A stretch of DNA of 64,000 nt, taken from assembly GCF_037042905.1 (NCBI RefSeq), contig NC_087245.1, positions 15,502,001-15,566,000 on the forward strand. The letters are read 5' to 3'. Each line of letters begins with the position of its first letter. Within the stretch, counting starts at the first letter, position 1. The DNA is from Lytechinus pictus (lineage: Eukaryota). Shown in pieces: positions 2,941-64,000 of the stretch. The notes beneath the pieces were generated by a model. That model searched no databases. It saw only the letters and a list, made by a program, of their open reading frames with translations, and was not told where the DNA came from. Position numbers and translations under genes: made by a program.

Positions 2941-3039
2941 CCCCCATCCCTTCTGGGTTCCAATAATTTTAATGCTTTAGTATTAATATTAGCATCCTAC
3001 CACGTCATGTTACTTGTTACGTTAGTGTTATTGACTTAC

Positions 3040-3243
3040 GTCCACAACTGTGCCAGATGTGCGGTCTTTCCAGCAAAAGTGCATGAGCGTATCGTCGGGC
3101 TGGTGAAGGAAGACAAGACCCTTTCTCTTGTCGGGAGTCACAGTCGTTCCTTTCAATTCCATTTTACCAGCTCGAAATTCCACCAGATTTTTACTGGATG
3201 GACGACCTCCGGTAGCGGAACTTCCAAATAATGCTCCAGACAT
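3040..3243 (-). CDS. ADRM1: Proteasomal ubiquitin receptor ADRM1/Rpn13, first coding exon (start of Pru domain); later exons not found in the window
   Basis: [68 protein letters not shown] closely matches the animal ADRM1 N-terminus (LVEFRAGKM...[10 protein letters not shown]...[10 protein letters not shown]). 68 codons, then a phase-0 GTAAGT donor at 3039. Confidence 0.95.
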
Positions 3244-3587
3244 GATTGACTTGGTTACAACAAGGCAAATATATTCACGTAAACTGTAAAAATTACGGCA
3301 GATCTCACTGATGATGAGAATTTGTAAGTGACAATGCGAAATTTCGATAAATGTGGTGTTTTTGATGGGCCAATGAAAAAGGAAAACACGGAGTTCTCGT
3401 GTTAACCCATCTCGTCGTTATCTTGAATTACATTTCTTATGTTTGAACCCTTTTCAAATTCCATCCATGTAAGAACAGAATCGTCGAAATAATGAATATC
3501 AAAAAGTAATATGTACCTTACACTTACAGGCCTTGTCATATTTCATCTGTAAAGAGAGGGAGAGAGAGAGAGAGAGAGAGCGGAGAG

Positions 3588-44729: not shown

Positions 44730-45099
44730 ACAAGGCAAAAGCGATTTTGTGTCTCGCCCACTTATGAAAATAACCAGAAATATCTTGATTTGCGAGGGCA
44801 CGCAACAGAATTGTAGCGAAACTTCATTGTGAAATGACTGGGATGGAATAACACTTGTCATAAGAGCCTTGCACGTAAACTTTAATGTTGACCTGAAAAT
44901 GACCTTTGACCTTACCATGTGACCTTTGATTGCAGCATAACATGCAGGTCCCCCAAGTCCCTCTATCATCCAAGTTTGGTTGAATAGCGACTTACGGTTG
45001 TGGAGTTATGTGTCATTAGGTTTGTGACGGACGGACGACAGACGACGGACAAAATTTGGATCCCTAAGTCTCGCCTTCACCTCTTGTTGGGCGAGACAA
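44730..45099 (+). mobile_element. Helentron/DINE-1-like non-autonomous element
   Basis: 5' gtctcgcc motif, internal (gacg)n microsatellite and 3' hairpin gtctcgcc...ggcgagac. Second copy at 50470-50822. Confidence 0.65.
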
Positions 45100-47328
45100 T
45101 AAGGTTAAGGGAACAAGTATAAGATGTTCATTGTGAATTTCAAAAAAAAGCCTGTATATGGCTTTAGTTGTAAGATTGGCATCAATGTCCTGACAAGCAT
45201 AATAACAAAACAAGGAAGTGAGTCTTAACTCAAAGCAAATTTGAGGAAGAATGCCAGACACATCTTAACTCATAGTCAACTAGAACAGGGCAAAGACCCT
45301 GTGCAAAGCCTATAAATTACAGAATTCACCAGTCAAAAGATTAAGATGTTTCTCCACATAGCATAAATGATGTCATTGTGGCTGATAAATGATTGTATTA
45401 AAGATAAATCTTTAAATTTTCATGGACCCCCCCCCCCCGGAAAAAATCCCAGTAACCATGAGAGCCAGCAGGTATATAGTGGTGGTAATGTCCATTAATT
45501 AAAGGTAAAAGACAGTAGTTGCAGCAAAGAATTATTTCATGAGAAAGTCTTTTAAATCAGAGTTAATTGTCAAAATATTATCATACATCTAGATCTGGTA
45601 CATTAATGTAAACTTATCTTTGTAAAATCATGAAATGTTAGCTCAAAATTGATAATTCTGATGCTCACTAACACGGAAAAGCATATGTGGGACAATGTAT
45701 CAATATTGCTTAAAAAAACACCTGACATTTGATGGAATTCCGTGCTTATTTTGCTAATTTCTCAGCAATTACGCATTTTCCTCTAGAGCTATTAGGCACA
45801 TATTTTTTATTTATACATACAAACACTATGGTGGTAATTTTATTGGATTCTGTTCGATCTCATTTTGAGATCTTTACCATAACTGGTGTTTATCTTTAAG
45901 CATTGAAAATTCATCCTTGTGAAAAGCCATAATTTGAAGCTACAAATTTTCAAATACCATCCCCACAAAAAAATACAAACTTCACTCATAATCTTGGGTA
46001 ATGAATAATTCAGGCATGTAAATGATTGCTAAATTTTATATTGAGATATCATTATTGAAAAAGGTAAACATATAATTTCATGAAAATTAAATGCTTTCAA
46101 ATATTTCTATTTAGTGCATTTTGGCAAAGAAAGAGCTATTCCCATTACAGGATAGATATGAAAACTTTTGTTACATATAGCCTTCTATTGCAAGTCAAAT
46201 AATGGAACTTTTGTCTCATATCATAGGTATTTAATACTTTTACATATATTGGATATTAATTTTTGTTAAACCTTTTAGAATATTTAAATATTAAAAGTAG
46301 GGTGTTTTATCCAATAAAGGTGTATTTGGTTCGCATGATTTACCTGTGCAGTATGCGATCATATTGCACGAAGCACGAAATATCTGATGAATATATATCC
46401 AATAGACTCAGGTAGACTACTGTATAAAACTTGACGTTCATTATGGTACCATATTGAACAGTCAAATGCAAAATATACAGTCATGTACAACACACACAAT
46501 AATCAATAAATTGTGAGGCACAGCTCAGACTGCATTGAAACTAAATGACGTCAAAAGAGCTCAATGTATGTCACATTTCTATGATCAAATTGATCTCATG
46601 AAGTGAGGCCATATTAACCGATTGAAGTGAGTGATATAATTTGCTCAATCAATTTCATGGAATACCAGAAATAATCCACTTGTTGAGGCCAATATCGATT
46701 TGTGCGATAACACCCCCAACTCTTGGAATATCTCTGGTATCTCATTCTGAGCCATCCAATATAATACAAATATTCTATTTCAGATTGGTTGCGAACTACA
46801 TGCTTACACATAATATTCCAATTTTTTAATAAAACTGTTCTGTGCACAAAGAATAGTGATCTCACAAGCAGGATATGGCCCCACAATAAGAAATCTTCAC
46901 ACTGATGAAAGCAAAAACATACACAAAGCAAAGGAATACCAGAATGAATACACATGCAAAAGAAACTTGACCTTTCTTCCCAAATTATATTCCATGACAT
47001 CTGCTCCTGCAACAATTGCTCCTATGGAAATGCTGTATTTACCCAAACATAAACACTACGCTCAAATCAAAGTATAATCTTAATCCTCACTATATTCTTA
47101 ACCAAAAACCCCATCACACCGCTAACTCTAACCCTATATCTTCAGAAAAATCAATGCAGGAGCAAGTGTCTCGGTTCAAGCGAATGTTAGATCGCCCCCA
47201 AAATGAAAAAAATGCAATTTAAATGTCTTGCAGTGATACGTATACATGTAAGTCATTACACATGTAGTGTTAGATGATCAATGTGACCTTGCAACTTCTG
47301 GCCAACTTCAAAACGAATCAACTTGGTA

Positions 47329-47754
47329 TCATAACTCATCATGCCTATCATCTCCACTGTCCTGAACCTTCTGCTCCATCTCTTTCTCTTCCACTTGATT
47401 CAGCTCTTCTTTCCTTCCCTCCTCCTTTTCCAACCGTGATTTCTTGTCACACACGTGGATGCTCTCCGGATCATTGACATACACAATTTCGTTATGCCCT
47501 ACATCCTCCACACTGTTACACTCTCCTCCCACGTCACTCTCTGCCATTATCCATCTCTCCTCTGGGTTGTCAAAATGGTTCACACCGAATTCCTGGAAGA
47601 TTCCTTTGGCTACAAACTGCTTGTACCAGAGTTTTTCGATGGTTGGGTCGTGTTGGTACCCTTTGTTGAACTTCTCAAAGGCCTTGTCACCATACTGCAT
47701 GATCATGCGGGAATCTATCTGATTGGTACCTTCTGGATCTAAAACATCGAGAAT
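47329..47754 (-). CDS. JmjC gene exon 10 (degenerate EF-like loop, acidic tail, HDEL)
   Basis: ILDVLDPEGTNQIDSR...DSGDDRHDEL*. Acceptor ccttaaaacag. Confidence 0.88.
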   Translation of the reverse strand: MLDVLDPEGTNQIDSRMIMQYGDKAFEKFNKGYQHDPTIEKLWYKQFVAKGIFQEFGVNHFDNPEERWIMAESDVGGECNSVEDVGHNEIVYVNDPESIHVCDKKSRLEKEEGRKEELNQVEEKEMEQKVQDSGDDRHDEL

Positions 47755-50700
47755 CTGTTTTAAGGAGAGATTTGGAGATGGACAAAAAATGATAAAATCA
47801 GATGGATTCTTCAATCTGACTAGTTGCACGCAGTCAAAAATCATACCTCAACCACAACCAAGATCAAAAACATATTGCATATTTAACTTATATTATTTTT
47901 GAAAACATTCATAATCTAAACAGTCATTTCTATATTCATTCATGAACCAAATTGAATCCTGTATTAATCTATTGGATATGTAGGTTAATGTGATGATCAG
48001 TGACCTTCAAGGGCTTTGATCTTCAGAAACCACAATCAGATAGAATCACATGACACTACCATATGCACATATAAGCCAAATTTGAAGTTTAAACATTAAA
48101 AGGTTCTTCATCTATTGCAGGATTACTTAGACATCTTTGAAAAGTAGATAACATTACCGGAACCATCTGAGGTAGCATTTAGAATCCATTCTTTAAAACA
48201 TAAATCACTATCCATGCTTTTTAATCATCACACAGTTCTAATGAACTATAATAGCTATGGGGAAGCTGATGCTTTAATACAGTACAAAGTTGGTAAGAAC
48301 AACAAGCATACAAAATTGATAATTTCCTCAAAAGAATATTATTTCTGTGATATATTTGGAAGGTTATTTCATTCCACATCGCTTGTTTTTGATAAAAGAG
48401 GTATATCATACAAGTTAGAGAACAAAATGGTTAATTTTGTTGTTGCTGTTGCAAAGTCCCAATTTTGCAACATCTCTTTATGAGGGAGTGGGTTGTCTTC
48501 ACAGAGCTGCCAAAATGTATTTTGCATTTTCAGTATTCTTATCCCCCAAAATCAGTATTTTGACAAAAAATCAGTATTTTTACCGTGTGAGATAAATATG
48601 CAGACCTGCCAACCTCTGGAAATGAATAACTGTATTCTGTGATAAGAAAAAATGTATTTTTCCCCAAAAAAGTGTATTTCATAATAAAATGCTTGGCGCA
48701 CTCGGTCATCGCGGCGCTCAAGCTGCATGCAAGCTAAAATGCGCACTGCTCTTGCAGATGAAAAAAAAACCCATTAAAACATGTGTATATCTTCACCCTG
48801 GTTTTAACAAAATGATAAAAAAAAACAAGTTACCTGAAATTACATTGATCTAATAACCATATTTGTGTACATTTTATGAAATAGAGACATATAGAGATTA
48901 TTTTTCTCAATAAATTACGATTTAGTAACAAAAAACGTAACGTACTAAATACGGCTAAAACGTACTGGTTGGCAGGTCTGTCTTCACCCTCACTACAGTG
49001 CGTATAAAAAAACCGGGACAGATTTGAAAAGTCTATAAAATTTTTGTTTCAAATAATGATGTCTATATTTTGGTGTTAATAGATGCTCTAAGGTCTTATC
49101 TTTGAAATGCAATTTAAACAAATAAATTTTATTCATGCTTGAGCGAACACGGGACCTTTTTGTTGGGGGTTCAAAAAGAGGCTTGCGCCAGAATTGCAGA
49201 ATATGTGTAATACAATGATCAGACTTCTTGCTAATCAGGAGACTTCCTCTTGACCTTTTCATTATCTGTGCCACAATTTTCGAATTATGCTGTCAAAATT
49301 CATTTACAAAGTTATTTATTTAATTGAATTATTTTGTTTTTTCATTTAAACTTCTCTTACCTTTAATTTTCCTTCATAAGTAACTGAGAAAAGAAGTTTT
49401 TTTTGTCAACCCAAGCAAGAAGATTTGAATTATTAATTGGGAAAACTTGTGATTATTCAAATCGTTTTATTATGTGAAACACATTATGTTATGTACCTTT
49501 AAAAGACATGAATCTATTTTTCAATGGGTCATTAATTCCTTGACCAAGTTTAATTGCTTGACAGGAAACACAGGAAGGGATTCATGTCTTTCAATGACAA
49601 TGGTGTATTGAGTCAATTTTGAAGGAGCTAGATATGGCAGATCAGGTAAAATGTATTAAAAAGTTGTGAGCGAGCGAAGTGAGCACGCAAATATTCCCAC
49701 TTTTTTTAATTACAATATCAAATTTTGTGATAGATTTTGACATAATAAATATTCAGAAAATAATATCATATTTTACTTTCTATCTTTCCTTTTATTTCCT
49801 GTCCACTTTTTTTCTTGGTCATGATTTTTTTAATTGAGGGGGGGGGGGGCAACCCGAGCGCCCGCCCATCTGTGTGGCTTTGTTCAAAAGGCATCATAAC
49901 CTTTGTGGCACATAATGAAAGGATTTGAATAAAAAATCCATGCTCTCCCATAATTCGGTTGAAGAAAAATAATTTTAGCTTGAAGAAGGAATATTCAAAG
50001 CTAACAGAGAGCATATTAAAAAGAAATAACAGAATAATTCAAGCAAATACATAGATCTGAAAATGAATTTTGACCGCATGATTTGAAAATTATGGCAAAG
50101 AAAATGAAAAGGTTAAGAGGAAGTCTGCTAATTAGCAAGAAATCCGATCATCATATTACTCATATTCTGCAATTCTGGCACAAGCCTCTTTTTTAACCCC
50201 CAACAAAAACGTCCCGTGTTTGCTCAAGCATGAACAAAACTAATTTTTTTTAATAATATTTGAAAGACAAGACCTTAGAGCACCTATTAACACCAAAATA
50301 TAGACATAATAATTTGAAACAAAAATTTTATAGACTTTTCAAATCTATCCCGTTTTTTTTTTATACGCACTGTAGTATGCCAGTCCATTTGCTCTAATTC
50401 ATATGAATATTAAAACTTTCATATATGCAGTTGTTAAATTTTGCACTAAAAACTGATTTCTTTTTAATGACAAGGCATTAGCGATGTTGTGTCTCGCCCA
50501 GTTGTGAAAATGACCAGAAATATCGCGATTTGCAAGGGCACGCAATAGGGATTGTATCAAAAGTTCATTGTGAAATAACTGGGATGGAATAACATTTGTC
50601 GTATGAGTCTTCCATGTAAACTTTAATGTTGACCTCAAAATGACCTTTGACATTAACATGTGACCTCCAGACACAATGCAGGTCTCCTAAGTACAGCTAC

Positions 50701-53700
50701 AATCCAAGATTGATATGAAATTGACTTACGGTTGCAGAGTTATGTGTCATAATGTTTGTGATGGACGGACGGATTATATTTGGATCCCCAAGTCTCGACT
50801 TAACCTCTGGTGGGAGAGACAAAAAGGGGTCCAATCAAATACTCACCTCTTTTGCAACCTCTGTACTCCCTCCCAAGTAGAAGGTGTAAATCTTAATGAA
50901 ATCAGATCCACTGAATGGTTGTGATGGATTGTGACCTCGGAGCATTGTGAGAGCGCCCCTACAGCAATTAAAAATAACAATAAATATACTTATGATCACA
51001 ATATCTTACACTTATTTCATCATAATCTTTCAACACAATATATGCAGCATCATTGTCCTGGCTTATTAAGCAGTGCATCTTGTGAGGCATGCACCTCATA
51101 CCACCCCAAAGATTTGTATTTGTGGAGCGACCGACTAGGGGAAGCTGTGTGAAGGGGACCCTATCCTCCAATGGTAGGATTTTTTTTGTATTTTAGATCT
51201 GTACGAGGGCCCTCAGTCGGCTTTTTGTTAGCTTTTCGACAATGTAACGTATGTTGTAAACAAAATGTAACTTATGTTGCAAACAAAATAGCTTACCAAA
51301 TAGCATCCTTGTCAATGTGGTGATATTCAAAATCTCCCTTGTTGGAGGCATCTGAAGGGTCAATGACCTCTACTAGATCCTTCAATGTTTGTAGAGGTAA
51401 GGAATCTAACTCTTTTACCGTGATGTAACCTTGTCCGTTGGTATCCAAAATCTCCATAAACTGTACAATGAAATGGAAGTAAACAATAGTAATTACCAGT
51501 AATATCTATGTTTCTTCATGAGATCTCTATGTACAAATTGAGACATTTGACAGTGATGTACTTTCATTCATTGGTATCCATTATACTCTTTATGAGATAT
51601 ATGGGAAATTTATTATGATTCATAAATATCATATATATTCACTTCTGAACACCCTATATCAAAAGATATAGAGAAAGGAATAATTCCTAGAAAAAAAAAA
51701 TGTGCAGTTCGAAGAAATCAGTGTTATATATAATAACATTCTTTTGAGATTACAGAGATGGTGAATTGACCCTATATTCCATGACATAACATTGTCCTTG
51801 TGAAAACTTGGGAGTAGGAGAAGCATGAGAGTAACATCACACACCTTCTGTAATAGCTCTATGGTCTAGCAGTGGCAACTTCACAGCTTTAATTTAATTG
51901 CAAACTTTATCGTAAGGTGTGTGATGGGATTAACAGAGGACACATATTTCATCTTTATAGCTCAGAGACCTTACCTCCAAACGTTGTTTTACAAGTAAGT
52001 CTTCATCATTTAGTTCTCCCTGCAGAAAATAACAATAAAATGAGTTATCAATATTTGAAATATTGCATTGTTTTCAGATTGTTTGATGTAATGTGCAATG
52101 TTTATCAGATCAGTCACCTTAAAGCATAAACCCTTTGAACAATAAATAAAATAAATAAATAAATAAGACAATCAATAAATCTGAAACAAAAAAAGATCGC
52201 GTTGCAACATTTACTTTTTCCTTCAAGTCTTGTGCAACTTTTAAGACTAAATTCGCAACACGGGGGGTATGCGGTTCCGAAGTTACATTACATTTTGTAA
52301 ATGCACGCAAGACCCAAAATTACTCAAAAACGTGATTTCATATACAAATCCAATGCAAATTCACTAGGTAGCCAAAATTCGCAAATTCATCATTTTCATT
52401 TTTACTGAATAAAAGCAATAGATTTCATGTTATTTATGACTGCAATAGTGTTGAAATTTGCACTATAATCTAAAAATAGCCCGGGATATATAGGGTTAAA
52501 CTGCAAAGATGGAGAGCATATACAAAATATACATACTTTTGAAATAGTAAGGTTATTAAGTCTTCATTGCATGATTAAAACATTTATTGTAGACTAATAG
52601 AATTTTTGAAATTAAAACAAAATTAAGCTGTCTTAGTCCCCAACTCTTATTAATTACAATAATGCACCAATAAAACAAATCACCATGGCAATTTTTAGAT
52701 GTTTTTAATTAGGTTTTTTTCATTGGGGGGGGGGAACATGTCATATAATAATCTAAAGTGCATTACAAATATGATAAACTATACCTGTATAAAGTTATCT
52801 GTGAATTCTCCCAACCAAATCTTGCCAGTTGTATCAGCTATGGTTTTCATGACAGTTCTGAAATAGAAGAAAGTTTATTGAATTATTTGGTAATAAGAAT
52901 GAGAAAATACATCCTTGAAAGCTCGGAAGTCGATTGATATAGTTATAAGGCTTGTGTAGTTATGACGCTGGCGGCTGCATAGGCCAGCATCAAAATTCAA
53001 TCAATAATTGATGGGTAAGCAGCAAGGATGCCACAGGCAGGAGAGTAGAAGGTACGGTAGGGGGGGGGGTATCTGTCACAGAATAATTTTTTTTTTTTTC
53101 AATTGATGTCAAATCAAAATTTGTGATTTTGTGCCAATATGTTTGTCATTTTCAGATCGTTCCATGCAAGCCTTGTGTGTGACTTGCGGGTGACTTTTTT
53201 TGTTCCCCGCAAGTCACCCACATCGACAGTATCTCGCACATATTTCACACACAGTTGCCTGCAGGAGCGCACGCAAGTACGATTAGCACACAGAAAAGTT
53301 TTGAACATGCTCAAACCTTTGTAGCAACAATTAGCCGCAAGGCTTGCACGGAATGATGTGACAGGGTCTTAGCGATATGAATCCCTGTGACTTCATTCTT
53401 GGTGTAAATTTCATCTTAAAGACACATTGACCAATGCATTATTTCACAAGAACAAATACCTCAACATGTGCACATCCATATGACCTTGTGAGAGCTCTCC
53501 GTGACCGCTGTAGCGCCACAGAACGGATGACTCGCTCATGGGTTGGAAAGTATTGCCTGAATCTTCACAGCCCGTAGGGTCAAAGGTCAAAAAGTGAGAG
53601 AACCAGATGGATACAGCACTGTTCATATACCCTCTTGATCTCACCTGATGTGTATAGCCTAGAATATTGAAATATCAATATGAGAATTAGATTGTACATT

Positions 53701-56700
53701 TTATCCATTATTTGTCTTATTTGGCACTGTAATAATATGTTACCCAGGTTGTACGTGTCAACATAAAAATCTCAATCTCATTCTATATATCATTTCTTGT
53801 CAAAGTGTGTGAAATGTGGGAATAAATTTAGAATAAGAAAAGATGTTAAGTACAAACGGATTGTGGTATACAGATAATGGTTGCCCTAAACCAAGTAAAG
53901 TGCAATGATTCAAGAAGATAGTCAGCAATGACAATTTGTCATTTTTTACAATTACCATAGTAATTGTCTGGAAAAAATGCATTCCAGACAATAACAGACA
54001 AGGATTTTCCTTTATTATCAGGAGGTGGCAATCTACTCAGTGCTAGCAACTTTCATCAGTGTGTAACAAAATCTGAAAGGATAATGCTGGAGCTTTTTAT
54101 AACTATTCCAAAGGTACTGTGCGTGTATAATTCTCACTAATGTGCTTAATGTGTATTGTTTGTATACTAGAAACTTACCGCTAGGCATGTAGATACAATC
54201 CCCTTTTTCCAGAATCACCCTGTCAAACACCAGGTCCTTGACGTTACTATGTATGTCATAGTCTACGTCATCTACATTGACACCCGAGTATCCTCCAAAC
54301 TCAAAGCGAGAGTCCTCAGACATATAAAGCCGTTCTTTCTGATATAAACAGGTGTATGGGGAAGAATGATAGGTATAAAGTACCTTTACCAGAAGTAAGA
54401 TGCGCATCTTTCATGAAGGAAAAAAAACACACCTTCATACAGGGATTCAAAATTGATGTTTCTTTCACAGGGGCTATCTTACATTTGTTCTCCACAGTTT
54501 TGTATATGATTAATGTAAGAAGAAAGCGATATTATTGGATTCCTGCACTAAGAGACAATACCGACTTTAGTAAGGTGCCTACTGAGAATGATGTAATTTG
54601 TCAACCATCAAAACTGCCATGATCATATAATAACACAGGTTTTTCTAATGCCCATTTTGAAATGTTTTTACCTGTAAAAAAATAAATACATTCACAACAA
54701 CTATCATTATTTCCCCTAAACAATAATTTGGCACACAAGGTGTTCAAGAAAATAGCGGGAAGAGAGGATTATTTCACAGAAAACTCAGAAACGCTTTATA
54801 TATTATTGACACTGGATGAGACCCAGTGTACAAGTTAATTGGAACTATCACTTCTTACATACCAGTGAAAAGAGGCAAACGTTTAAAGGGAGTGGAGTTT
54901 TGGATATGTGGCACAAAATGGAAGGGGCAAGGTGAGCAAAAATTCTCCTTCACCCCCCCCCCCCAAAAAAAAAAAATAGAAAAAAAAAAGTTATGAACAT
55001 CTGTTTAACCAAAATATCAGTTCCAAATATTCAAGGAAACTTGATAATTACAATGTTAAATAACATATTTGTAAGGTTTATAGTCATAAGTATCACCAAA
55101 CACCCCACCCCCAACCCACACCAGTGTGCTTACCTGGATAGGATCTGCAATAAGCCATTGCTTGGTCCCATTGTATACACAGTGGATGGAGCTGTATGGA
55201 TCGCGGTGAAGCAGAGTCTTCCCTCCTCGAGAACTCAGAAACAGGTGGACTTCCTTAGGATTCAAACACAACACAATCAAAGAAATCAAGGATTGTTGAC
55301 CATAGTGATGCTGCAGTCACATTTTCCCAACGTCGGCCGTAAGGCGAGTCGAAAACAGCCGCTTTATTCAATTTTATTCAAACCACCCATATGTAGCTGG
55401 TACAAAAAAAATTTAAAACGCCCGTTTTCAACTCGCCATAAGAGCAAATATGACTGAGGTATTAGCAACAGCATTGGCATACATGCTGTTTTCTGTATCA
55501 TTCAACTTTAAAAGTATGATCTTTTTTAAAAGCAAACATACATTTTTATAGCCTGTTTAAATTTCTCTTCACCAGGGGCCCGTTTCATAAAGCTGTTTGT
55601 AAGTTAAGAGCGACTTTAAGAATGACTGGTGATCCTTTCTTGTGGTAAATGACGTTCACCATTATTTGTTGGTGATTATTTAGCACATAAGAAAGGATCA
55701 CCAGTCATTCTTAAAGTCGCTCTTAACTTACGAACAGCTTTATGAAACACCCACCTGGTCTAAAGGCTTACGTTTGATGAGCAGTGAATTTTGAAGAGAA
55801 TAGGGAGGAAATTAGGTCATTAGGCTGGAAACATCCTAGTTATTAAAATTCTGTTGAAGATTTGTGCAACAAAGCACAGCACAAAGACTATAGATACAAT
55901 TAGGTCAAGTTCTCCACTCAAATCAACACACATTGCACAATACCAGAGACTGAAATATATTGTTGAAAATGGCAGACAAGCTTATAAAATTCTAATGATT
56001 TTATAAATGGTTTCAAGTGTCAGTTTTGTCTCAAGAAACATTTTTTTTCTCAAGAATTTGCATCCTTAACTTAGTTCAGGACCAATGGGGGCCATTTTTA
56101 AAAAATCTGTTACAAGAAGGTGAGATAGGAATCGGGTTGATCTCAAACCCGTGAGCTTTGCTTTCCTGGTAATTTGCATGAAAGAGGGGTGGACCATGTT
56201 ACCTAGAAATACCCAGGACTCAAAGCACAAAGCATAGCATAGCAATCGATCATAAGGCTGGTATTTACAATTGATTGCATTGGCTAAGATGTGCTATCAA
56301 TTGCACAAATTGTCTATACAATCAATTGCTACACTTTGTGTTACTGGGCACACGTAAAACCCTGTCCCTACCTGAACACCCTGTGCCAGGGATCCACAGG
56401 TTAGGAATGGAGGAAAGGCGATGTCTTTCTCCATGGGAGTAGGTATTTGTGATATGATGTAACCATCTAGGGTCTGGTAGCGATCCAAGAAGTTGCTGAT
56501 GGTGTCTCGTCCCATCCCTCCCACACCACTTGGTATCCTAGAGTTGTCCTCACTCCTACAACAGATATTCAAAAGAATGATTAATACTATTCACACTGTT
56601 AATTGAATAGACTCAGTAGTGCTCAATCATGAAACAATAACAGATTAATACTTTTATTTCTTTTCTTTATTTTATGATACCGGTAGTTAAAAAAAATAAA

Positions 56701-57655
56701 AATGAACATGGACATGGACATCAAATGAGGGAAAATGATATGAATTATGCCAATAAATTTGCATTTTCAGTGACTTAATTTTCTCAATAATATTTTAGAA
56801 AGAGTAGATATCAGAGTACCGTGTAGAGATGAACTTCAGTAAAATTGTCTTCTATTCATGAATTATTCCTAGTACTGTGAATTCGAAACAAATGTTAAGT
56901 ATGATTGTAAACATTCAGGACATATTAATAAGAGAGTAACTACAAAAACATTTTCTAATTTCTAAAGGAGACAGTGTATCTCTGTGGTCAGATGGCACAT
57001 TGCTATTTTGATACAAAAATATTAAACAAAATATCATCGGGTTTTGGGGCGTATTTCTCTTTAACATACTCTTCCCTGTTCCTCCATAATCATCATGTAT
57101 TGGTGGAAGCTCTCCACCCACAATGCCTAAATAACTTAGATGTAAAATGTTTTCTATGTAACTGGTTATATACCAGCTTGGCGTTATACCAGCAAAAGGC
57201 TATCTTTCTGCATTCCTATGGGAGTTACCATAACAGAATGATCATAAACATTTATCACAGAAAATATAATAATGTCCTTTTTACAACCTGCTCTCTTTGT
57301 ATTACCTGGCTTCAAGCCTGACTGAAAGACCTCCATACATTTCCTTCAAGTATTCTTCTGTCCAAAGATGATAGGCTGCAGAGTGTTTTGCTGCTCCCCG
57401 CAACACAACAGGTTTGTACTCTTTAATATACCTCTCATGGAACTCTACCGGTGTAGGGAAATGGTCTTCTGGACTTGCCTGTATTTCTTCAACGTAAGGT
57501 GTCGGCTCTGCATACTTGCCAAAGACATTGGCAGGCCGGCCCTTATAAAATGGATTCCTAGGGTCAAGATCAGGGACACTGAAATCTATTTCGGGCTTCA
57601 CAAAATGGAAGACGTTCACGGCGAACATGAATATGAAGAAGTGAGCCAGCTTCAT
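47329..57655 (-). CDS. ER-luminal JmjC (cupin-like) 2-oxoglutarate/Fe(II) oxygenase with EF-hand motifs and C-terminal HDEL; 610 aa, 10 coding exons
   Basis: Exons 57306-57655, 56372-56555, 55134-55253, 54179-54338, 53460-53658, 52785-52857, 51975-52019, 51297-51460, 50847-50958, 47329-47754. All junctions are GT-AG and phase-consistent, 1833 nt in total. JmjC-only hallmarks: F..RYI...KPVVLRGAA...W...YL, H-R-D, GTKQW, LEKGDCIYMPSGYTHQVRS. EF loop DTNGQGYITVKE. Ends RHDEL*. Confidence 0.92.
48601..48980. mobile_element. MITE with cagacctgccaacc TIRs
   Basis: cagacctgccaacc...ggttggcaggtctg. No TSD seen. Confidence 0.65.
48996..50372. mobile_element. Tc1/mariner-like element with long (~250 bp) TIRs and TA TSD
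   Basis: ta|cagtgcgtataaaaaaa...ttttttatacgcactg|ta. 48996-~49255 is the inverted match of ~50110-50372. Confidence 0.85.
50470..50822 (+). mobile_element. Helentron/DINE-1-like element, second copy
   Basis: Colinear with 44730-45099. Confidence 0.65.
50847..50958 (-). CDS. JmjC gene exon 9
   Basis: WGALTMLRGHNPSQPFSGSDFIKIYTFYLGGSTEVAKE. Phase 2-0, GTGAGT donor. Confidence 0.8.
51297..51460 (-). CDS. JmjC gene exon 8 (EF-hand)
   Basis: FMEILDTNGQGYITVKELDSLPLQTLKDLVEVIDPSDASNKGDFEYHHIDKDAI. Phase 0-2. Confidence 0.88.
51975..52019 (-). CDS. JmjC gene exon 7
   Basis: 45 nt, phase 0-0, GELNDEDLLVKQRLE. Junctions ttttctgcag / GTAAGG. Confidence 0.75.
52785..52857 (-). CDS. JmjC gene exon 6 (degenerate EF-like loop)
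   Basis: RTVMKTIADTTGKIWLGEFTDNFIQ. Phase 2-0. Confidence 0.8.
53460..53658 (-). CDS. JmjC gene exon 5 (distal Fe-binding His)
   Basis: GYTHQVRSRGYMNSAVSIWF... Phase 1-2. Confidence 0.9.
54179..54338 (-). CDS. JmjC gene exon 4
   Basis: KERLYMSED...SGVNVDDVD...ILEKGDCIYMPS. Phase 0-1. Confidence 0.9.
55134..55253 (-). CDS. JmjC gene exon 3 (HxD motif, 2OG-binding Lys)
   Basis: EVHLFLSSRGGKTLLHRDPYSSIHCVYNGTKQWLIADPIQ. Phase 0-0. Confidence 0.92.
55572..55758. mobile_element. Hairpin MITE (Harbinger-like)
   Basis: ~65-bp inverted arms gtttcataaagctgtt...aacagctttatgaaac. Confidence 0.75.
56372..56555 (-). CDS. JmjC gene exon 2
   Basis: RSEDNSRIPSG...TISNFLDRYQTLDGYIISQIPTPMEKDIAFPPFLTCG...VQ. 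Phase 2-0. Confidence 0.9.
57306..57655 (-). CDS. JmjC gene first coding exon (signal peptide and JmjC N-terminal region)
   Basis: MKLAHFFIFMFAVNVFHFVKP...PTPVEFHERYIKEYKPVVLRGAAKHSAAYHLWTEEYLKEMYG. A strong acceptor at ~57667 implies an upstream non-coding exon. Confidence 0.92.
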
Positions 57656-57776
57656 CGTGATAAATTCTGGAGGAGAAAAATAGAGATTGAATTTTTCGTA
57701 AATTTATTTGATGACATGATAAACTAATAGAGTTTTTTATTCAAGTTAATCAGCTCAGGTAAAGCTACATACCATT

Positions 57777-57947
57777 ATCCTGTTTTAGCTCAATAACAAT
57801 TTTCCTTCAAAAGTTATTTTACAAATCAATGAAACCTAGTTACATGTAGTTAATTAAATATAGATCCTGTTTTAGCTCAATAACAATTTTCCTTCAAAAG
57901 TTATTTTACAAATCAATGAAACCTAGTTAGTTACTTAAATATAGATC
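57777..57947. repeat. ~86-bp direct tandem duplication
   Basis: atcctgttttagctcaataacaattttccttcaaaag...gaaacctagtta occurs twice. Confidence 0.85.
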
Positions 57948-59939
57948 ACTCTTTGTCTGCAACCACCCTGTCTGTGTTGGGAGCCTATGCAACATAGTAC
58001 TTCTACAACATATTCTCAAAAAAATCTTTGTCTTACTCTTAGAAACATTTTCATTGCTACCCCCTAAAATAAGAATTAAAAATACATTCATTACTGTCTT
58101 TCGATATAATCCTGGTATTTTTTTTTGTCACCATAAGTGCTGAAATAATATCATGAGTTACCCACATAAAAGAAGAAGAGGAAAACATATACAGAAATAG
58201 GCTCATGATTATCTATAGTGAGTAATGTCATTTGAAGAAATCAATTTTCTTTAGCCTTGGGTTATATAACTGACTGATGAGCTGTGCCTCCCCCCTCCCA
58301 CACACACAAAAATAAATAAAATAAAAATAAAGAAATTAAAAAAATGAGCACTTATCAGTTAGATCAGGGGAAAATAAGCAAGAAAAGCTGTCTCAATATT
58401 GCCAACCTTAATTTCATCACTTGGGATGGGATTTAACTGCTCAGGACAAGGTCAAAGCCTTCTGCCTTTAGCTACACTGGATGTGTGACATACAAGTTGT
58501 ACTGCATACCACTCCCAGATATCACTCATCGTATGTATGAGGTTATTAACATCAATGAACAGGAATAAAATCATTTTGGGTTAAATGGTGGGCTCATGGT
58601 CGTTAGGTATCTTTAAATTTAAGTTGCTTACTTTATAAGACTTCCCTATAATACATGTATATGATTATCACCAGGCTAGCATGCATGCCAAGCTACATCT
58701 AACTAGATCCAAGTGACGTTTTAGTTTAGTTCAGTTTAGTTTACTCCAACGATGTTGCAGGACTAAGCCTGTTCATCGATCAAAGTAGAATGTCTATTGC
58801 TGTTCTCCTTCAGACAAAATTAGATGCGCTACTTATGTTGGCAGGGAGGGGTGGCAGGGGTATTGTAGACAGCAAAATATTCCATGGAAACACACGAGAA
58901 TCGAAAATCACTCAAAATCATAGGCAATCTTCTCCCAATGCTTAACCAGTCTATTCTTAAATGCAATCACTGAACAAGCAGTAACTACATCTTCTGGGAG
59001 ACTGTTCCACACATCTATCACTCGGTTAGCAAAGAAAAACTTACACACATCAAGACGTGAATATCTTTTCTCTAGCTTTAAGAAATGACCACATGTTTTA
59101 CCACCATTTCTCAGACAAAAAAGCTCAGAACTTGTATCATAGTAACCATGCAGATATTTGTACACGTCAATCATGTCACCTCTTTTACATCTGTGACTGA
59201 GTGATGGCAATTTCAGGAGGCGAAGACTTTCAGAGTATGATAGGTGCTTAATACCTGGGATCAATTTAGTAGCTCTACGTTGGACACTCTCTAACCACCT
59301 CTGCTCACCCAGTTTATACGGTGACCACGCAGCCTGGCCATATTCTAAGATTGGGTGAATAATACCCTTAAACAAAAGCTTAATAGAGGTCTTATCCAAA
59401 TGTACAAAAGTTCTTCTTGTAATACCAAGCAGTCTATTAGACTTTGACACCACTTTAGAAATGTGCTCCTTGAAAGAAAGACGTGAGTCTACCTGAACTC
59501 CTAAATCTCTCTCACATTCACGTAGAACAACCGATTGCGAACCTTTGGTCATATGATACTCAGAGTCAGACCTACTTCTTCCAATCTTCAAAACAGTACA
59601 TTTATCTGGGTGAAAACGTACCTGCCACTTCTCAGCCCAGGCCTCAAGCTCAGTCAAATCATCTTGCAATTTACCAGTGGCCCCTGGAACATCAGAACGA
59701 ACATACAACTTAGTATCGTCAGCAAACAGCTTGGCTGAAGTCTGCACTGAATCTGGGAGATCATTTACATACTTTAAAAACAAAATGGGGCCAAGAACAC
59801 TGCCCTGGGGTATTCCACTGCAAACTTCTGACCAGTGGGAGTGTTGACCACTGACAAAGACCCTTTTGATGTCTACCAAGCAGAAAGTCAATAATCCATG
59901 CATGCATTTTACCTTTGACTCCAAGAGCTTGTAGTTTAC

Positions 59940-60790
59940 TAGACCAAAAGCTTCAGTCTCTGTATTTTGGTTGTTCCGCTGAACTACGTTGGCTCCACTC
60001 ACCAATACATAGACTGAAGAGCTTGGAGGCCCAAACGTACAGCCAACGTATAAGTGAACTAACGTTTTATAGGTCGCGATTTAAAACTGTTTTTAAGCGA
60101 AATTTACAGTTTCATGGTTTCCATTATCAGGGAAATATAAATAACTTAAGTAATTGCGTACCTTGGACCGGAGTTATTGAAAAAATTCCTCTGGATGATT
60201 GAGAAATCTTTCATCAAAGACATTTTCACCTAAGCTGTCGAAGACATTTTCACCTAAGCTGACGGTTTTTCTTGCAAGTCGCCATCTTGAATGACGTCAT
60301 TATCCTTATTAACTTTTTAATGTCTCGATATATCGAATGTCGTCTGCTACCTCTGATCGTAGCGGTTTAGCTCGCATATGGAGCAGATCATATAATATTG
60401 AAAGCAATATCGATATCACATTCGTAAATTGTTGACGCCCTCTCCGTTCGTTGGTAAATATCTCATATTTTGGCTGCAATTTTGGGGTGATTCTCGAGAC
60501 CAAGACAAGTAAACATCGGTAAAGTACCATTTTCATACCTTTTGATCTATTTTGTGCATATTTCGTTATTTGTTATATATTCAAGACAGTAGTTAGGTAG
60601 TTTCTAAATCCTTAGACTGTAAATTCGATTTAAAAAAGAATATTGAAGTCTGGACAGTTAGTCAGAGAATTGGCGGAAGTGATAACACATGCGAGCTCAC
60701 ACTAACGAACTAACGTCGGTGAATGGGGATTATAGTGAAATGTCAGAAATTGTGAAGGAAATCCCCAGAAACGCCGTTTATTCCTGTCTA
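59940..60790 (+). mobile_element. 851-bp TAGAC...GTCTA DNA transposon with 9-bp TSD inserted in the LINE RT
   Basis: TSD gtagtttac at 59931-59939 and 60791-60799. Removing the element restores RT ...HRLLSKLQALG... Confidence 0.9.
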
Positions 60791-61099
60791 GTAGTTTACT
60801 AAGAAGTCGGTGATGGGGAACAGTGTCAAAGGCTTTCATAAAATCCATGAACACTACATCTACACTACCGCCATCATCCAAAATGCGGGTCCACTCATCC
60901 AGGACTTCTAAAAACTGTGTAGTACAAGAATGTCCAGCAATAAAACCATGCTGATGAACAGAGAGCAGGTCATTCTCCTGAAGATGACGAATAAGTTGTG
61001 TCCTAAGTCCTTACCAAGCTTTCAAGTAACTTACAAATATTAATACATGTCAGACTTACAGGCCTGTAGTTTCTAATTCTACTACTTCTACCTTCTGAT

Positions 61100-61242
61100 T
61101 AGACCAAAAGCTTCAGTCTCTGTATTTTGGTTGTTCCGCTGAACTGCGTTGGCTCACTCACCAATACATGGTGAATGGGGATTATAGTAAAATGTCAGAA
61201 ATTGTAGAATAAATCCCCAGAAACGACGGTTATTCCTGTCTA
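61100..61242 (+). mobile_element. 143-bp deletion derivative of the same TAGAC element with 9-bp TSD
   Basis: TSD ccttctgat at 61091-61099 and 61243-61251. Consists of the first ~70 bp and last ~73 bp of 59940-60790. Confidence 0.9.
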
Positions 61243-62353
61243 CCTTCTGATTTGCTACCCTTTTTAAATACCAGGGTCAAATTAGCACTCTTCCAATCTC
61301 AGGCAAAACTCCTTGTCCTACACGTTTCTGAAACATAATGGAAATAGGTAAGCAAAGTACACCAGCTAATTCCTTGCGTACACGTGGATGGACTAGGTCT
61401 GGTCCCACCCATGGGTTCATATCGTCTCGCGTGCGAAGGAATATCAGTCATATGCACGCGACACACACGACACATCCAAAATATACTGGGCTTTTGCCCA
61501 CATAAAATATCACGCATAATCTGGTATTTCACATTCTGCTATGACACTTACCGAATCATTTAGATCCTTCCGTGACTTCTCCTTGAAGTTTCTTTTAAAA
61601 AATATGTATATTTTCTTGATCTTTAGTGAAGATTTCACGGAGATCGAAATTGGTCAGCGTGGATATCAATTTTTGCCTAAAGAGGGCGCGCGATTTATAT
61701 TCATATCAAAGACACGACAAGGGAAAGACTAGGCACCTACACTATTTTACACGCAAATCGACGCAAGGCATTAAGCGAAGTCCGTGAAGTGTCCAATCTT
61801 TTCATTGTATAGACTTTGGTATACCGTATTATTGACGTACCTTCGTTAAAGCTTGTACTGCTGGTTTCGTTCCAGGCATGTGTATTTTTTCAATTTTTTT
61901 TTTATTAGTCATCGTTTTAAATTAATTGCAAAAAAGTGTTATCATCGCCAATAGTAATCTTGAATTATGTTTTTGAAGGTATTTCATTTATTGGTGCCCA
62001 TAATTAGTAAATTAATCATAAGAATTGCGCATTCAAAGAATTTAGACACAGTTATAAAATTACAGAGGAGCTGAATCAAGGTTGTGAAATTTATTAGCAC
62101 CACCAACGGTCTTCCTTGTATTTCCGTAGAAGAGACAAACGAGGTCACTTGCTAGGCCGAGGTAAGCGAAATTTGCTTTTTTTGTAATGAAATTATTTCC
62201 AAATCATATGTATAATTTTTTTATGTATTGCTAATGCTACTTACCGGAAAGAGCCCCGGTGCGTAGCGAGAAGGAGTTTCGGCAAATATTACTTCAGCAA
62301 TGAAGCGATGTTTGCCGACTACTTCGAAATCCAGGGTCAAACACGGTCCCTTG

Positions 62354-62383
62354 TACGAGGTTAGTATATATACTAACCTCGTA
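62354..62383. repeat. Perfect 30-bp palindrome
   Basis: tacgaggttagtatatatactaacctcgta equals its own reverse complement. Confidence 0.9.
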
Positions 62384-64000
62384 TTAGTCACTTGTTCACT
62401 GCAACCACCCTGCCTGTGGGGAATCTACAGGTTGGACTATGGCATGCCAATGCTGTACTGAGCACACACTTTGAAAAATGATTAAAATATCACTTTTGTG
62501 ACCAAAATTACTAATTTCCATACAGTTGCAATTTATTTTTCATTAGTAACTTGGGAATAATTTTTGTATTCATTAGAGCGCTAAAAAACTTGAATTTTGG
62601 GCATATTTTTGTGTACGCCCTCTATTGGTGGAAAATAATATGGCAAGAAAATTTTCATTTTTTTATCTCTATTTTTAATTAAGAAAAAAATAATTTAAAG
62701 AATCAAATTTATTTAAGGGCCAAGTTGTATGACGAATAGGTGTAATGGAAACTGTCAGTGTAAAAAAATCAAGCATTTTGTCCCAAAGAAAAAGAGAAAA
62801 TAAGCCAAACATTGCCATCCTTATTTTGCCACACATATAACTGTTCATTGAATGAGTGGTATTATTAGTGAGTGGTCTGGTCCAGCCTCCAGGGGATTTA
62901 CTTGGTTGCAGTTTTATACACAGAAGTCAGAAGATTGAATATATCATTATTTGGAGGATATCTCTATGTCATTAAAATTAAATTACAGCAGAAAATGACA
63001 GAAACGTATTGAAATAAATATCAACCTAAATGCACTCTCGTCATTTTCCATTCGTCAATGTCAATGACATTTTGACAACATCGTCGGTCAAGACACGAGT
63101 TGCATTGTAGAACAGCAGATTCGCAGGCCGACAGCTTAGCGTTCGCGGTGATGTGGCTGGCCGATATCTCGCCGCTCGGAACAAAATTCCGATTGAGAAT
63201 CGTATAATAATGCATTCTTAAAGAACTAAAGACGACATAGATGATATTTCATATGTCATAAATGACATGAAATAATAAATTTCTCATACCTGTGCTTCCA
63301 ATACGTGCATGCCACATCACAGGAAATCACTTCCGATTCAAAACAATAACAAGATATTCGGCTCCAACTTTGAACTTTTAATTTTACACGTGTACCGGAA
63401 CTTTTGTGTGTCTTTGGATAAGAGGGCGTGGTCGACTGGCAGAGCGGGGTCAATTTCGTACCTCTAGCTCTCCGATCGATCCGGAGCTCTGGGGGGTCAT
63501 CAAAGTTGTCAGCACTGACTAAATTGTCAGTGCTGACAATTTCAGTGAAATCCTTGGTTTTTATTGGCTGTGAGCACTTTCCTCTGACTGTTACTATGGT
63601 AACTGTCGGAGGAAGGCAACTTGTCAGTGCTGACAACTTTCATGAAATGCTCTGCCATATCTGAAATCTGCAAAGGTGCATCGTCTTATATATGAGTAAA
63701 CAAGATTACCAATTAGTTATTTGAAGAAAAAAACCCGGAAAAGAAACATTGCAAACATTCACTACATTTCAATTGGGGATAAGGTGAAATCAGACAAATA
63801 AAACGTTGAAAATTTCATCAAAATTGCAAGGAAAAAGCAAGTTACAACGTCTTCAGTGAAGTTTTGCATTATTTTGGTGAAACAGTTCTATGCACAGGCT
63901 CGTGAATATGCAATAAGCAAGCTGTTAATATAATATCACCATAAATTCTTTTGTACTTTATCAGGTTAAATTGTATGCAAGATCCCGGAGGGATATTACT

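Follow-up and report, generated by a model that had tools for sequence, protein, structure and literature searches.

A sea-urchin JmjC gene of the secreted JMJD5-like family with a predicted endoplasmic reticulum retrieval signal and an EF-hand-derived domain

What kind of JmjC protein begins with a hydrophobic segment and ends in an endoplasmic reticulum (ER) retrieval tetrapeptide? The question is raised by a gene on the minus strand of a 64,000-nucleotide stretch of the Lytechinus pictus genome (NCBI RefSeq assembly GCF_037042905.1, contig NC_087245.1, positions 15,502,001 to 15,566,000), hereafter the window, in which its coding sequence (CDS) runs from 57655 to 47329. We find that this is a real, expressed sea-urchin gene that, judged by its relatives, belongs to the invertebrate-only 'secreted JMJD5-like' family, of which this genome contains three or more members. 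We think it likely that its product is an Fe(II)- and 2-oxoglutarate (2OG)-dependent JmjC oxygenase, kept in the ER by KDEL-receptor retrieval, that hydroxylates secretory cargo. The original prediction, made from the DNA letters alone, had proposed a poorly characterised invertebrate secretory-pathway JmjC hydroxylase, and the intact catalytic set, the conserved N-terminus and the ER-type end described below lend it support.

An expressed gene joins a JmjC domain to an HDEL end

From stop-to-stop reading frames and their flanking sequence we assembled ten coding exons, each flanked by an AG acceptor and a GT donor and with phases that agree, whose spliced CDS of 1833 nt encodes 610 amino acids followed by TGA. 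Used as a query, the first of these exons returned P0001, a 623-aa NCBI entry named 'uncharacterized protein LOC121424814 [Lytechinus variegatus]', at 96% identity, and a translated search (tblastn) of the window with P0001 recovered the same ten pieces. Globally, 589 of the 610 residues are identical to P0001 (96.6%), while a second urchin protein, P0002, shares 78% identity with the product.

RNA evidence came from one contig run and three raw stranded RNA sequencing (RNA-seq) runs (X21, X22 and X23) mapped to window positions 45000-64000. Eight of the nine CDS introns were seen directly in spliced reads, with 2-14 reads per run in all three runs: the counts in X21, X22 and X23 were 8, 14 and 4 at joint 56554/57305; 6, 11 and 9 at 55252/56371; 5, 13 and 6 at 54338/55134; 10, 12 and 6 at 53657/54178; 3, 13 and 3 at 52857/53460; 2, 6 and 7 at 52018/52784; 2, 6 and 5 at 51460/51975; and 7, 8 and 2 at 50957/51296. 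The first mate of the spliced reads always lies on the plus strand and never on the minus strand, so the RNA derives from the minus strand. The ninth CDS intron, before the HDEL exon, is not among these read joints and is supported by a 2735-nt intron-less contig in which the pieces 46563-47754 and 50847-50957 abut. Since this contig brings 47754 directly against 50847, the HDEL exon is joined to the JmjC exons, and the failure of that joint, named at the outset as an outcome that would undo the prediction, was not what the RNA revealed.

The ten predicted exons thus all stand, confirmed by splice sites and by tblastn, and an eleventh lies upstream of them. Joint 57666/63290 was found in 2, 4 and 6 reads of the three runs and in the contig, which extends 127 nt beyond it; the 5′ exon, drawn from reads, contig and an ATG scan, spans 63290 to 63417 with its upstream end not fixed, and P0001 begins here. 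The ATG at 63317 (63317-63315), the first AUG in the 5′ exon as observed, shares the reading frame of the CDS and places 13 residues, MWHARIGSTEFIT, before the methionine at 57655, and P0001 likewise has 623 residues. We therefore consider a product of 623 aa, as in the NCBI model, likely in place of the predicted 610; the hydrophobic core stays N-terminal with either start codon, and residue numbers below are those of the 610-aa product. A second AUG at 63310 on the minus strand, out of frame and seven bases after the first, opens an 11-codon upstream open reading frame that ends across the splice and could modulate the choice of start.

An intact catalytic domain related to JMJD5

P0001 matches Pfam Cupin_8 with 119.6 bits (2.8e-34) against a cut-off of 27.4. 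CDS exon 3 alone, at 32.1 bits, lies above the same gathering score, and the second exon of the transcript alone reaches 26.3 bits. The best-scoring relative with a solved structure is JMJD5 (1.2e-13); next come Drosophila JMJD7 (7.1e-8), JMJD7 (3.7e-6) and FIH (5.6e-4). HMMER aligns H194, D196, H275 and K209 to JMJD5 H321, D323, H400 and K336, so that the catalytic set read from the DNA at the outset is whole: the Fe ligands H194-R-D196 and H275 (in YTHQVRS) and the 2OG lysine K209 (in GTKQW). To place these residues in the family we used an alignment of 147 sequences of 300-750 aa, comprising the best 150 profile matches together with earlier ones after shorter or longer rows and four cluster duplicates had been dropped. 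Of these relatives, 145 keep the first H, 136 the D, 140 the K and 142 the distal H. An AlphaFold model of P0001, built from 18 orthologues, has a predicted local distance difference test (pLDDT) score of 78.5, and its JmjC part superposes on JMJD5 with a template-modelling (TM) score of 0.83 and a root-mean-square deviation of 2.7 Å over 250 columns.

Along the gene, the domain starts in the second exon (57306 to 57666, with the acceptor at 57666, the ATG at 57655 and coding part 57655-57306), which also encodes the hydrophobic N-terminus and, by alignment, E115 (57313-57311). It continues through CDS exon 2 (56555-56372) with Cys170, CDS exon 3 (55253-55134) with H194 (55208-55206), D196 (55202-55200), Cys203 and K209 (55163-55161), and CDS exon 4 (54338-54179) with JmjC β-strands and Cys266, and closes in CDS exon 5 (53658-53460), where the distal Fe ligand H275 (53650-53648) is followed by the end of the JmjC fold and Cys302. 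The single N-glycosylation sequon, N206-G-T in CDS exon 3, adjoins K209. Cys170, Cys203, Cys266 and Cys302 are kept in 145, 144, 142 and 142 of the 147 relatives, and these two conserved cysteine pairs are expected to form disulfides in the ER.

The substrate pocket also recalls JMJD5, in which the substrate arginine is held by E238, Y243, W310 and S318 according to the available text of PMC5862942. The equivalent residues in the window gene are E115, D120, F183 and T191, and in the corresponding columns of the alignment 127 of the 147 sequences have E, 140 have W or F and 145 have S or T. Because the E, W/F and S/T residues are retained, the pocket favours a basic side chain as the putative substrate.

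Both ends of the protein resemble those of ER proteins

Residues 1-19 (57655-57599) form the only 19-residue window in the protein with a Kyte-Doolittle mean of at least 1.6, and a hydrophobic N-terminus is present in 122/147 relatives. At the other end, the HDEL of the terminal RHDEL (47343-47332) stands directly before the stop codon (TGA, 47331-47329). The ER retrieval pattern is a C-terminal [KRHQSA]-[DENQ]-E-L, and the HDEL end fits this KDEL-type pattern. Ends matching [KRHQSA][DENQ]EL occur in 82/147 relatives and the looser xxE[LF] in 104/147. Within the window gene's own group of 25 orthologues 20 carry the strict form, and orthologues from cnidarians to tunicates conserve both the hydrophobic N-terminal segment and an [HKR][DE]EL end.

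Between the folded part and HDEL lies an acidic tail (47571-47344) with 24 D/E in the last 76 residues before HDEL, predicted by the model to be disordered. It is confined to the window gene, P0001 and P0002, which makes it urchin-specific. The hydrophobic start, the acidic tail and the terminal RHDEL are thus all present as first described. At 57628 and 57624 none of the RNA reads (9-12 per run) agrees with the window; they encode Leu in place of Met10 and Ser in place of Phe11, the residues that P0001 also has, and thus mark a polymorphism or a difference between strains inside the hydrophobic signal segment.

A C-terminal domain probably derived from EF-hands

In the model, P0001 residues ~345-540 form four helix-loop-helix units with short strands in their loops by DSSP (secondary-structure assignment), mostly at pLDDT 85-95. 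CDS exon 6 (52857-52785) encodes a first EF-hand-like unit with a shortened loop, DTTGKIWLGEF, and CDS exon 7 (52019-51975) the entering helix of the second. CDS exon 8 (51460-51297) supplies the loop DTNGQGYITVKE (residues 383-394, 51445-51410) and the helices after it, CDS exon 9 (50958-50847) a degenerate third unit, and the last exon (46563 to 47754, coding part 47754-47329) the fourth (loop 47739-47704) before the acidic tail; the 3′ untranslated region (UTR) reaches at least 46563. Most loops of the window protein are degenerate. Only the second, DTNGQGYITVKE, is near the EF-hand consensus: it matches a relaxed pattern and fits at positions 1, 3, 6, 8, 9 and 12. A PROSITE-style EF-hand loop pattern matched neither the window gene nor any of the 18 orthologues, and CDS exon 8 scores below threshold with Pfam EF-hand_1 (18.1 bits) and EF-hand_6 (18.4 bits).

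The argument for a common origin with EF-hands comes from relatives. The clade-A relative P0031 passes the Pfam cut-offs with EF-hand_7 (38.2 bits against 30), EF-hand_1 (35.2 against 25.4) and also EF-hand_6, and it does so in columns that align with the window gene's loops; long-clade relatives likewise have canonical loops in the matching columns, and EF-hand_1 was found at E ≤ 0.001 in 3/34 members. We conclude from these alignments that the C-terminal domain probably derives from four EF-hands. Of the helical region with EF-hand loops proposed originally, the four EF-hand-like units stand, while just one loop approaches the consensus and the Pfam scores of the urchin protein lie below the cut-off. 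Through this domain and the acidic tail the enzyme may be linked to luminal Ca2+ or to partners.

A family restricted to invertebrates

A word-based search with P0001 returned 500-530-aa orthologues from other urchins, starfish, Saccoglossus, amphioxus, Ciona, Clavelina, corals and anemones, nearly all with a hydrophobic start and an HDEL, RDEL, KDEL, HNEL or HEEL end. Searched with a profile, 1.84 billion cluster representatives yielded 5698 matches at E ≤ 0.001, 1565 at 1e-10 and 307 at 1e-30. A FastTree tree splits the 147 rows into three clades, of 57, 19 and 71 rows. The 57-row clade is the long one (median 515 aa), and inside it the window gene sits within its 25-row orthologue group (support 100); the 19-row clade is the short one. 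Names were looked up for 30 representatives, and all those named were sponge, placozoan, cnidarian, echinoderm, hemichordate, amphioxus, mollusc or nemertean; a short-clade member used as query added annelids, a brachiopod, tunicates and rotifers. No vertebrate, arthropod or nematode appears among the relatives listed by any of these searches, and several divergent representatives come from metagenome sources. The motif GHxxxhG is found in 107/147 relatives and in 14 of the 25 orthologue-group rows.

The same genome holds at least two further members on another contig (C14), L003 (1381-2211, plus strand) and L004 (1264-2211, plus strand). These paralogues show 35-38% identity and have the hydrophobic N-terminus and GHxxxhG; unlike the ten-exon window gene, each has one large exon that holds most of the JmjC domain. 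Database names for members of the family include 'uncharacterized', 'TYW5-like', 'JMJD5-like', 'KDM8-like', 'JMJD7-like' and 'jmjC domain-containing protein D/E-like', much as had been anticipated; annotation pipelines give these proteins four different wrong or empty names.

Variation at the metal site was seen elsewhere in the tree. A lophotrochozoan subclade of the short subfamily (P0082, P0091, P0092, P0093, P0113 and P0140) has an HxH metal site like that of JMJD8 and keeps the signal and an xDEL end, and P0048 (R/D/S/Y) and P0049 (H/H/E/Y) have lost ligands and look like pseudoenzymes. The ESM Atlas returned only the family's own clusters and a giant-virus (Nucleocytoviricota) Cupin_8 cluster that reached 0.80 in language-model features, too low for the tool to count it as meaningful.

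Comparison with described families and enzymes

The family itself is already known in silico. Iyer, Abhiman, de Souza and Aravind defined it computationally in 2010 (NAR 38:5261, PMC2938197) as the 'secreted JMJD5-like family' (also written 'Secreted JMD5-like family'); in the available text it is confined to animals and lost in vertebrates, arthropods and nematodes, has disulfide-bonding conserved cysteines, a GHxxxhG motif and three subfamilies, and is predicted to act on cell-surface proteins. The features found independently here match that description: the lack of vertebrate, arthropod and nematode relatives, the hydrophobic and putatively secretory N-terminus, the four cysteines, the split into three subfamilies that have expanded in particular lineages, and the traits held in common with JMJD5. 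The window gene differs in having lost the strict GHxxxhG. The available text of PMC2938197 uses none of the words 'endoplasmic', 'EF-hand' and 'signal peptide', and what is new relative to it is that ER-retrieval tails occur across the family, that the C-terminal domain probably derives from EF-hands and that residues of the arginine pocket of JMJD5 are retained. The original prediction had treated JMJD8 as the sole luminal JmjC protein, which overlooks this family. Our literature searches found no bench work on it after 2010, and combinations of JmjC with EF-hand, KDEL or HDEL gave nothing relevant. Nor did we find orthology of the window gene to a characterised enzyme, an outcome that would have counted against the prediction.

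JMJD5/KDM8, the human arginyl C-3 hydroxylase, is the best solved relative by both sequence (1.2e-13) and fold (TM 0.83), and has in common with the window gene the HxD...H set, the lysine and the equivalents of E238, W310 and S318. Identity is ~22%, and JMJD5 is cytosolic or nuclear and has no signal peptide, conserved disulfide cysteines, EF-hand domain or HDEL. We rejected the idea that the window gene is simply a JMJD5 orthologue, given the change of Y243 to Asp and a putative signal peptide, cysteines and HDEL that are foreign to JMJD5.

JMJD8, the vertebrate ER-luminal JmjC-only protein, shares with the window gene the JmjC domain and enters the ER lumen by an N-terminal signal (PMC5684140), as predicted for the window protein. 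It has HxH (PMC5684140, PMC2938197) where the window gene has H-R-D, and it lacks an EF-hand domain; the word KDEL is absent from the available text of the JMJD8 paper. The lophotrochozoan HxH subclade was considered as an invertebrate JMJD8 and set aside: 0/75 relatives are labelled JMJD8 or vertebrate, and JMJD8 forms a separate family in the table of PMC2938197. The relation to the JMJD5, JMJD7 and JMJD8 families is judged by E-values against solved structures.

Luminal Fe/2OG hydroxylases that act on secretory cargo also include P4H-TM, collagen P3H1 and ASPH, of which P4H-TM has EF-hands and P3H1 a KDEL end. These enzymes belong to other double-stranded beta-helix branches, not to JmjC/Cupin_8.

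Proposed function and alternatives

The data above show the gene's structure and transcription, its domain content, its conservation and its place in the family. We infer the ER residence, activity, substrate class and Ca2+ binding of the window protein from its sequence, and the pieces would fit together as follows. The hydrophobic N-terminus would carry the protein into the ER, where the two conserved cysteine pairs would form disulfides; the KDEL receptor would read HDEL and return escaped molecules from the Golgi; the JMJD5-like catalytic domain would hydroxylate a side chain of secretory-pathway proteins, most likely of a basic residue; and the domain derived from four EF-hands, with the urchin-specific acidic tail, may link the enzyme to luminal Ca2+ or partners.

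Several observations weigh against this reading. The pocket is not identical to that of JMJD5, as the place of Y243 is taken by Asp in the window gene and, across the family, mostly by Glu, Lys or Asp. The strict GHxxxhG motif is absent from the window gene, where R-P stands in place of G-H and the following F-G-x-H is kept; we read this as probable secondary decay in echinoid and asteroid orthologues, and the decay means that family membership rests on orthology. At the termini, 43/147 relatives have no xxE[LF] end, part of which may reflect truncated gene models, and the hydrophobic core is followed by no obvious small -3/-1 cleavage site, so the protein could stay membrane-anchored. In the C-terminal domain, Gln occupies position 5 of the best loop, where close orthologues have Lys or Arg, and Pfam EF-hand_1 scores 20.5 bits on P0001, below the 25.4 cut-off. 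Fold searches, which used the isolated C-terminal half of the relative P0070 (model pLDDT 80), were weak: the best Foldseek E-value was 5.5e-3, with none ≤ 0.001, although the top rows were nearly all four-EF-hand proteins, and the best VIA match (Z 6.5, none at Z ≥ 8) aligned 69 residues with an EF-hand protein and stood among mixed helical folds. Literature searches, finally, returned no localisation, activity or substrate data for any family member.

Where the protein resides is the point on which two alternatives turn. The lack of an obvious cleavage site, a core of ~17 residues and the 15 residues that the upstream AUG puts before it would suit an uncleaved signal anchor, which would leave the product in the ER membrane as a type II protein, its catalytic domain facing the lumen; the same arrangement has been proposed for JMJD8, which retains its signal peptide (PMC5684140). 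We give this a small chance, since in Ciona, amphioxus and coral orthologues the core is short and small residues follow it, as is typical of cleaved signals, and a soluble-type HDEL would be redundant on an anchored protein. Still less probable in our judgement is a truly secreted or cell-surface enzyme that acts outside the cell and for which HDEL is not a working retrieval signal. The label 'secreted' and the predicted cell-surface targets in PMC2938197 speak for it, as do the relatives that lack an xxE[LF] end, but the strict end in 20 of the 25 orthologues extends from corals to tunicates, and such conservation of the extreme C-terminus is hard to explain without selection for retrieval. 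Moreover, ER oxygenases are usually supplied with Fe(II), 2OG and ascorbate, and such a supply is not usual in sea water.

Other alternatives concern what the protein does, or whether it exists as modelled. The original prediction had raised glycans as substrates, for which we found no support, and TYW5 acts on tRNA, so the clade is not limited to proteins (PMC2938197); hydroxylation of a small molecule or glycan in the secretory pathway instead of a protein side chain nevertheless seems to us quite unlikely, as the nearest characterised relatives, JMJD5, JMJD7 and FIH, are protein hydroxylases and three of the four JMJD5 arginine-pocket residues are kept. We hold about as little, or slightly less, expectation of a catalytically silent luminal pseudoenzyme with a Ca2+-binding or chaperone-like role: the acidic tail, the EF-hand-like domain and the lost ligands of P0048 and P0049 would accord with one, but the four Fe/2OG residues are intact in the window gene and in 136-145 of the 147 relatives, and the acidic tail is limited to the three urchin proteins. 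An artefactual gene model fusing exons of two genes has next to no probability. The intron before the HDEL exon is indeed long (3092 nt) and holds highly repeated sequence, yet one intron-less contig runs from the 5′ exon to the 3′ UTR across the joint of 50847 to 47754, and the same architecture recurs in 18 aligned orthologues. An ER-retained hydroxylase of secretory cargo thus remains our preferred reading.

We know of no enzyme assigned to the hydroxyarginine of mussels. This residue is present in their secreted adhesive-plaque proteins (Papov et al. 1995, cited in PMC11603075), and the green-mussel byssus paper names no JmjC candidate. A link between this modification and the present family is speculation. 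In its full form, the idea would be that marine invertebrates owe the hydroxyarginine of secreted proteins, for example those of the mussel adhesive plaque, to this family, whose members would be ER-luminal arginyl (or lysyl) hydroxylases, and that in the long subfamily the EF-hand-derived domain couples activity to luminal Ca2+; we offer it tentatively and think it improbable as a whole.

Other features of the window

The 5.6-kb first intron contains a 390-aa open frame (58908-60080, minus strand) with a reverse transcriptase match (RVT_1, 5.3e-13), which is probably a retroelement remnant. Two intronic stretches, 48170-49437 and 55569-55758, have RNA depth 10-20 times that of the exons; the latter is covered on both strands with many loose ends, and a 53-nt skip at 48599/48653 recurs in all RNA runs. 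Rfam and ARAGORN searches of window positions 45000-64000 matched no RNA family and no tRNA, so these stretches are not known RNA genes, and they are probably multi-copy repeats transcribed elsewhere. Far from the gene, an open frame at 3028-3417 on the minus strand matches the Pru domain of the proteasome subunit Rpn13/ADRM1 (1.8e-13) and is probably an exon of a neighbouring gene.

Implications

Collagen, EGF domains and other secreted proteins are shaped by 2OG oxygenases of the ER lumen, and to our knowledge the well-studied ones all lie outside the JmjC branch. The window gene is a member of a large, invertebrate-restricted JmjC family that was flagged computationally in 2010. If the proposed link to hydroxyarginine were true, the urchin gene would be a first handle on a modification pathway without counterpart in vertebrates, arthropods and nematodes. 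The ER-retrieval ends, the EF-hand-derived domain in one subfamily and the kept JMJD5 arginine residues would in any case turn the label 'secreted' into testable predictions of the enzyme's site of action, its possible regulation and the residue to search for.

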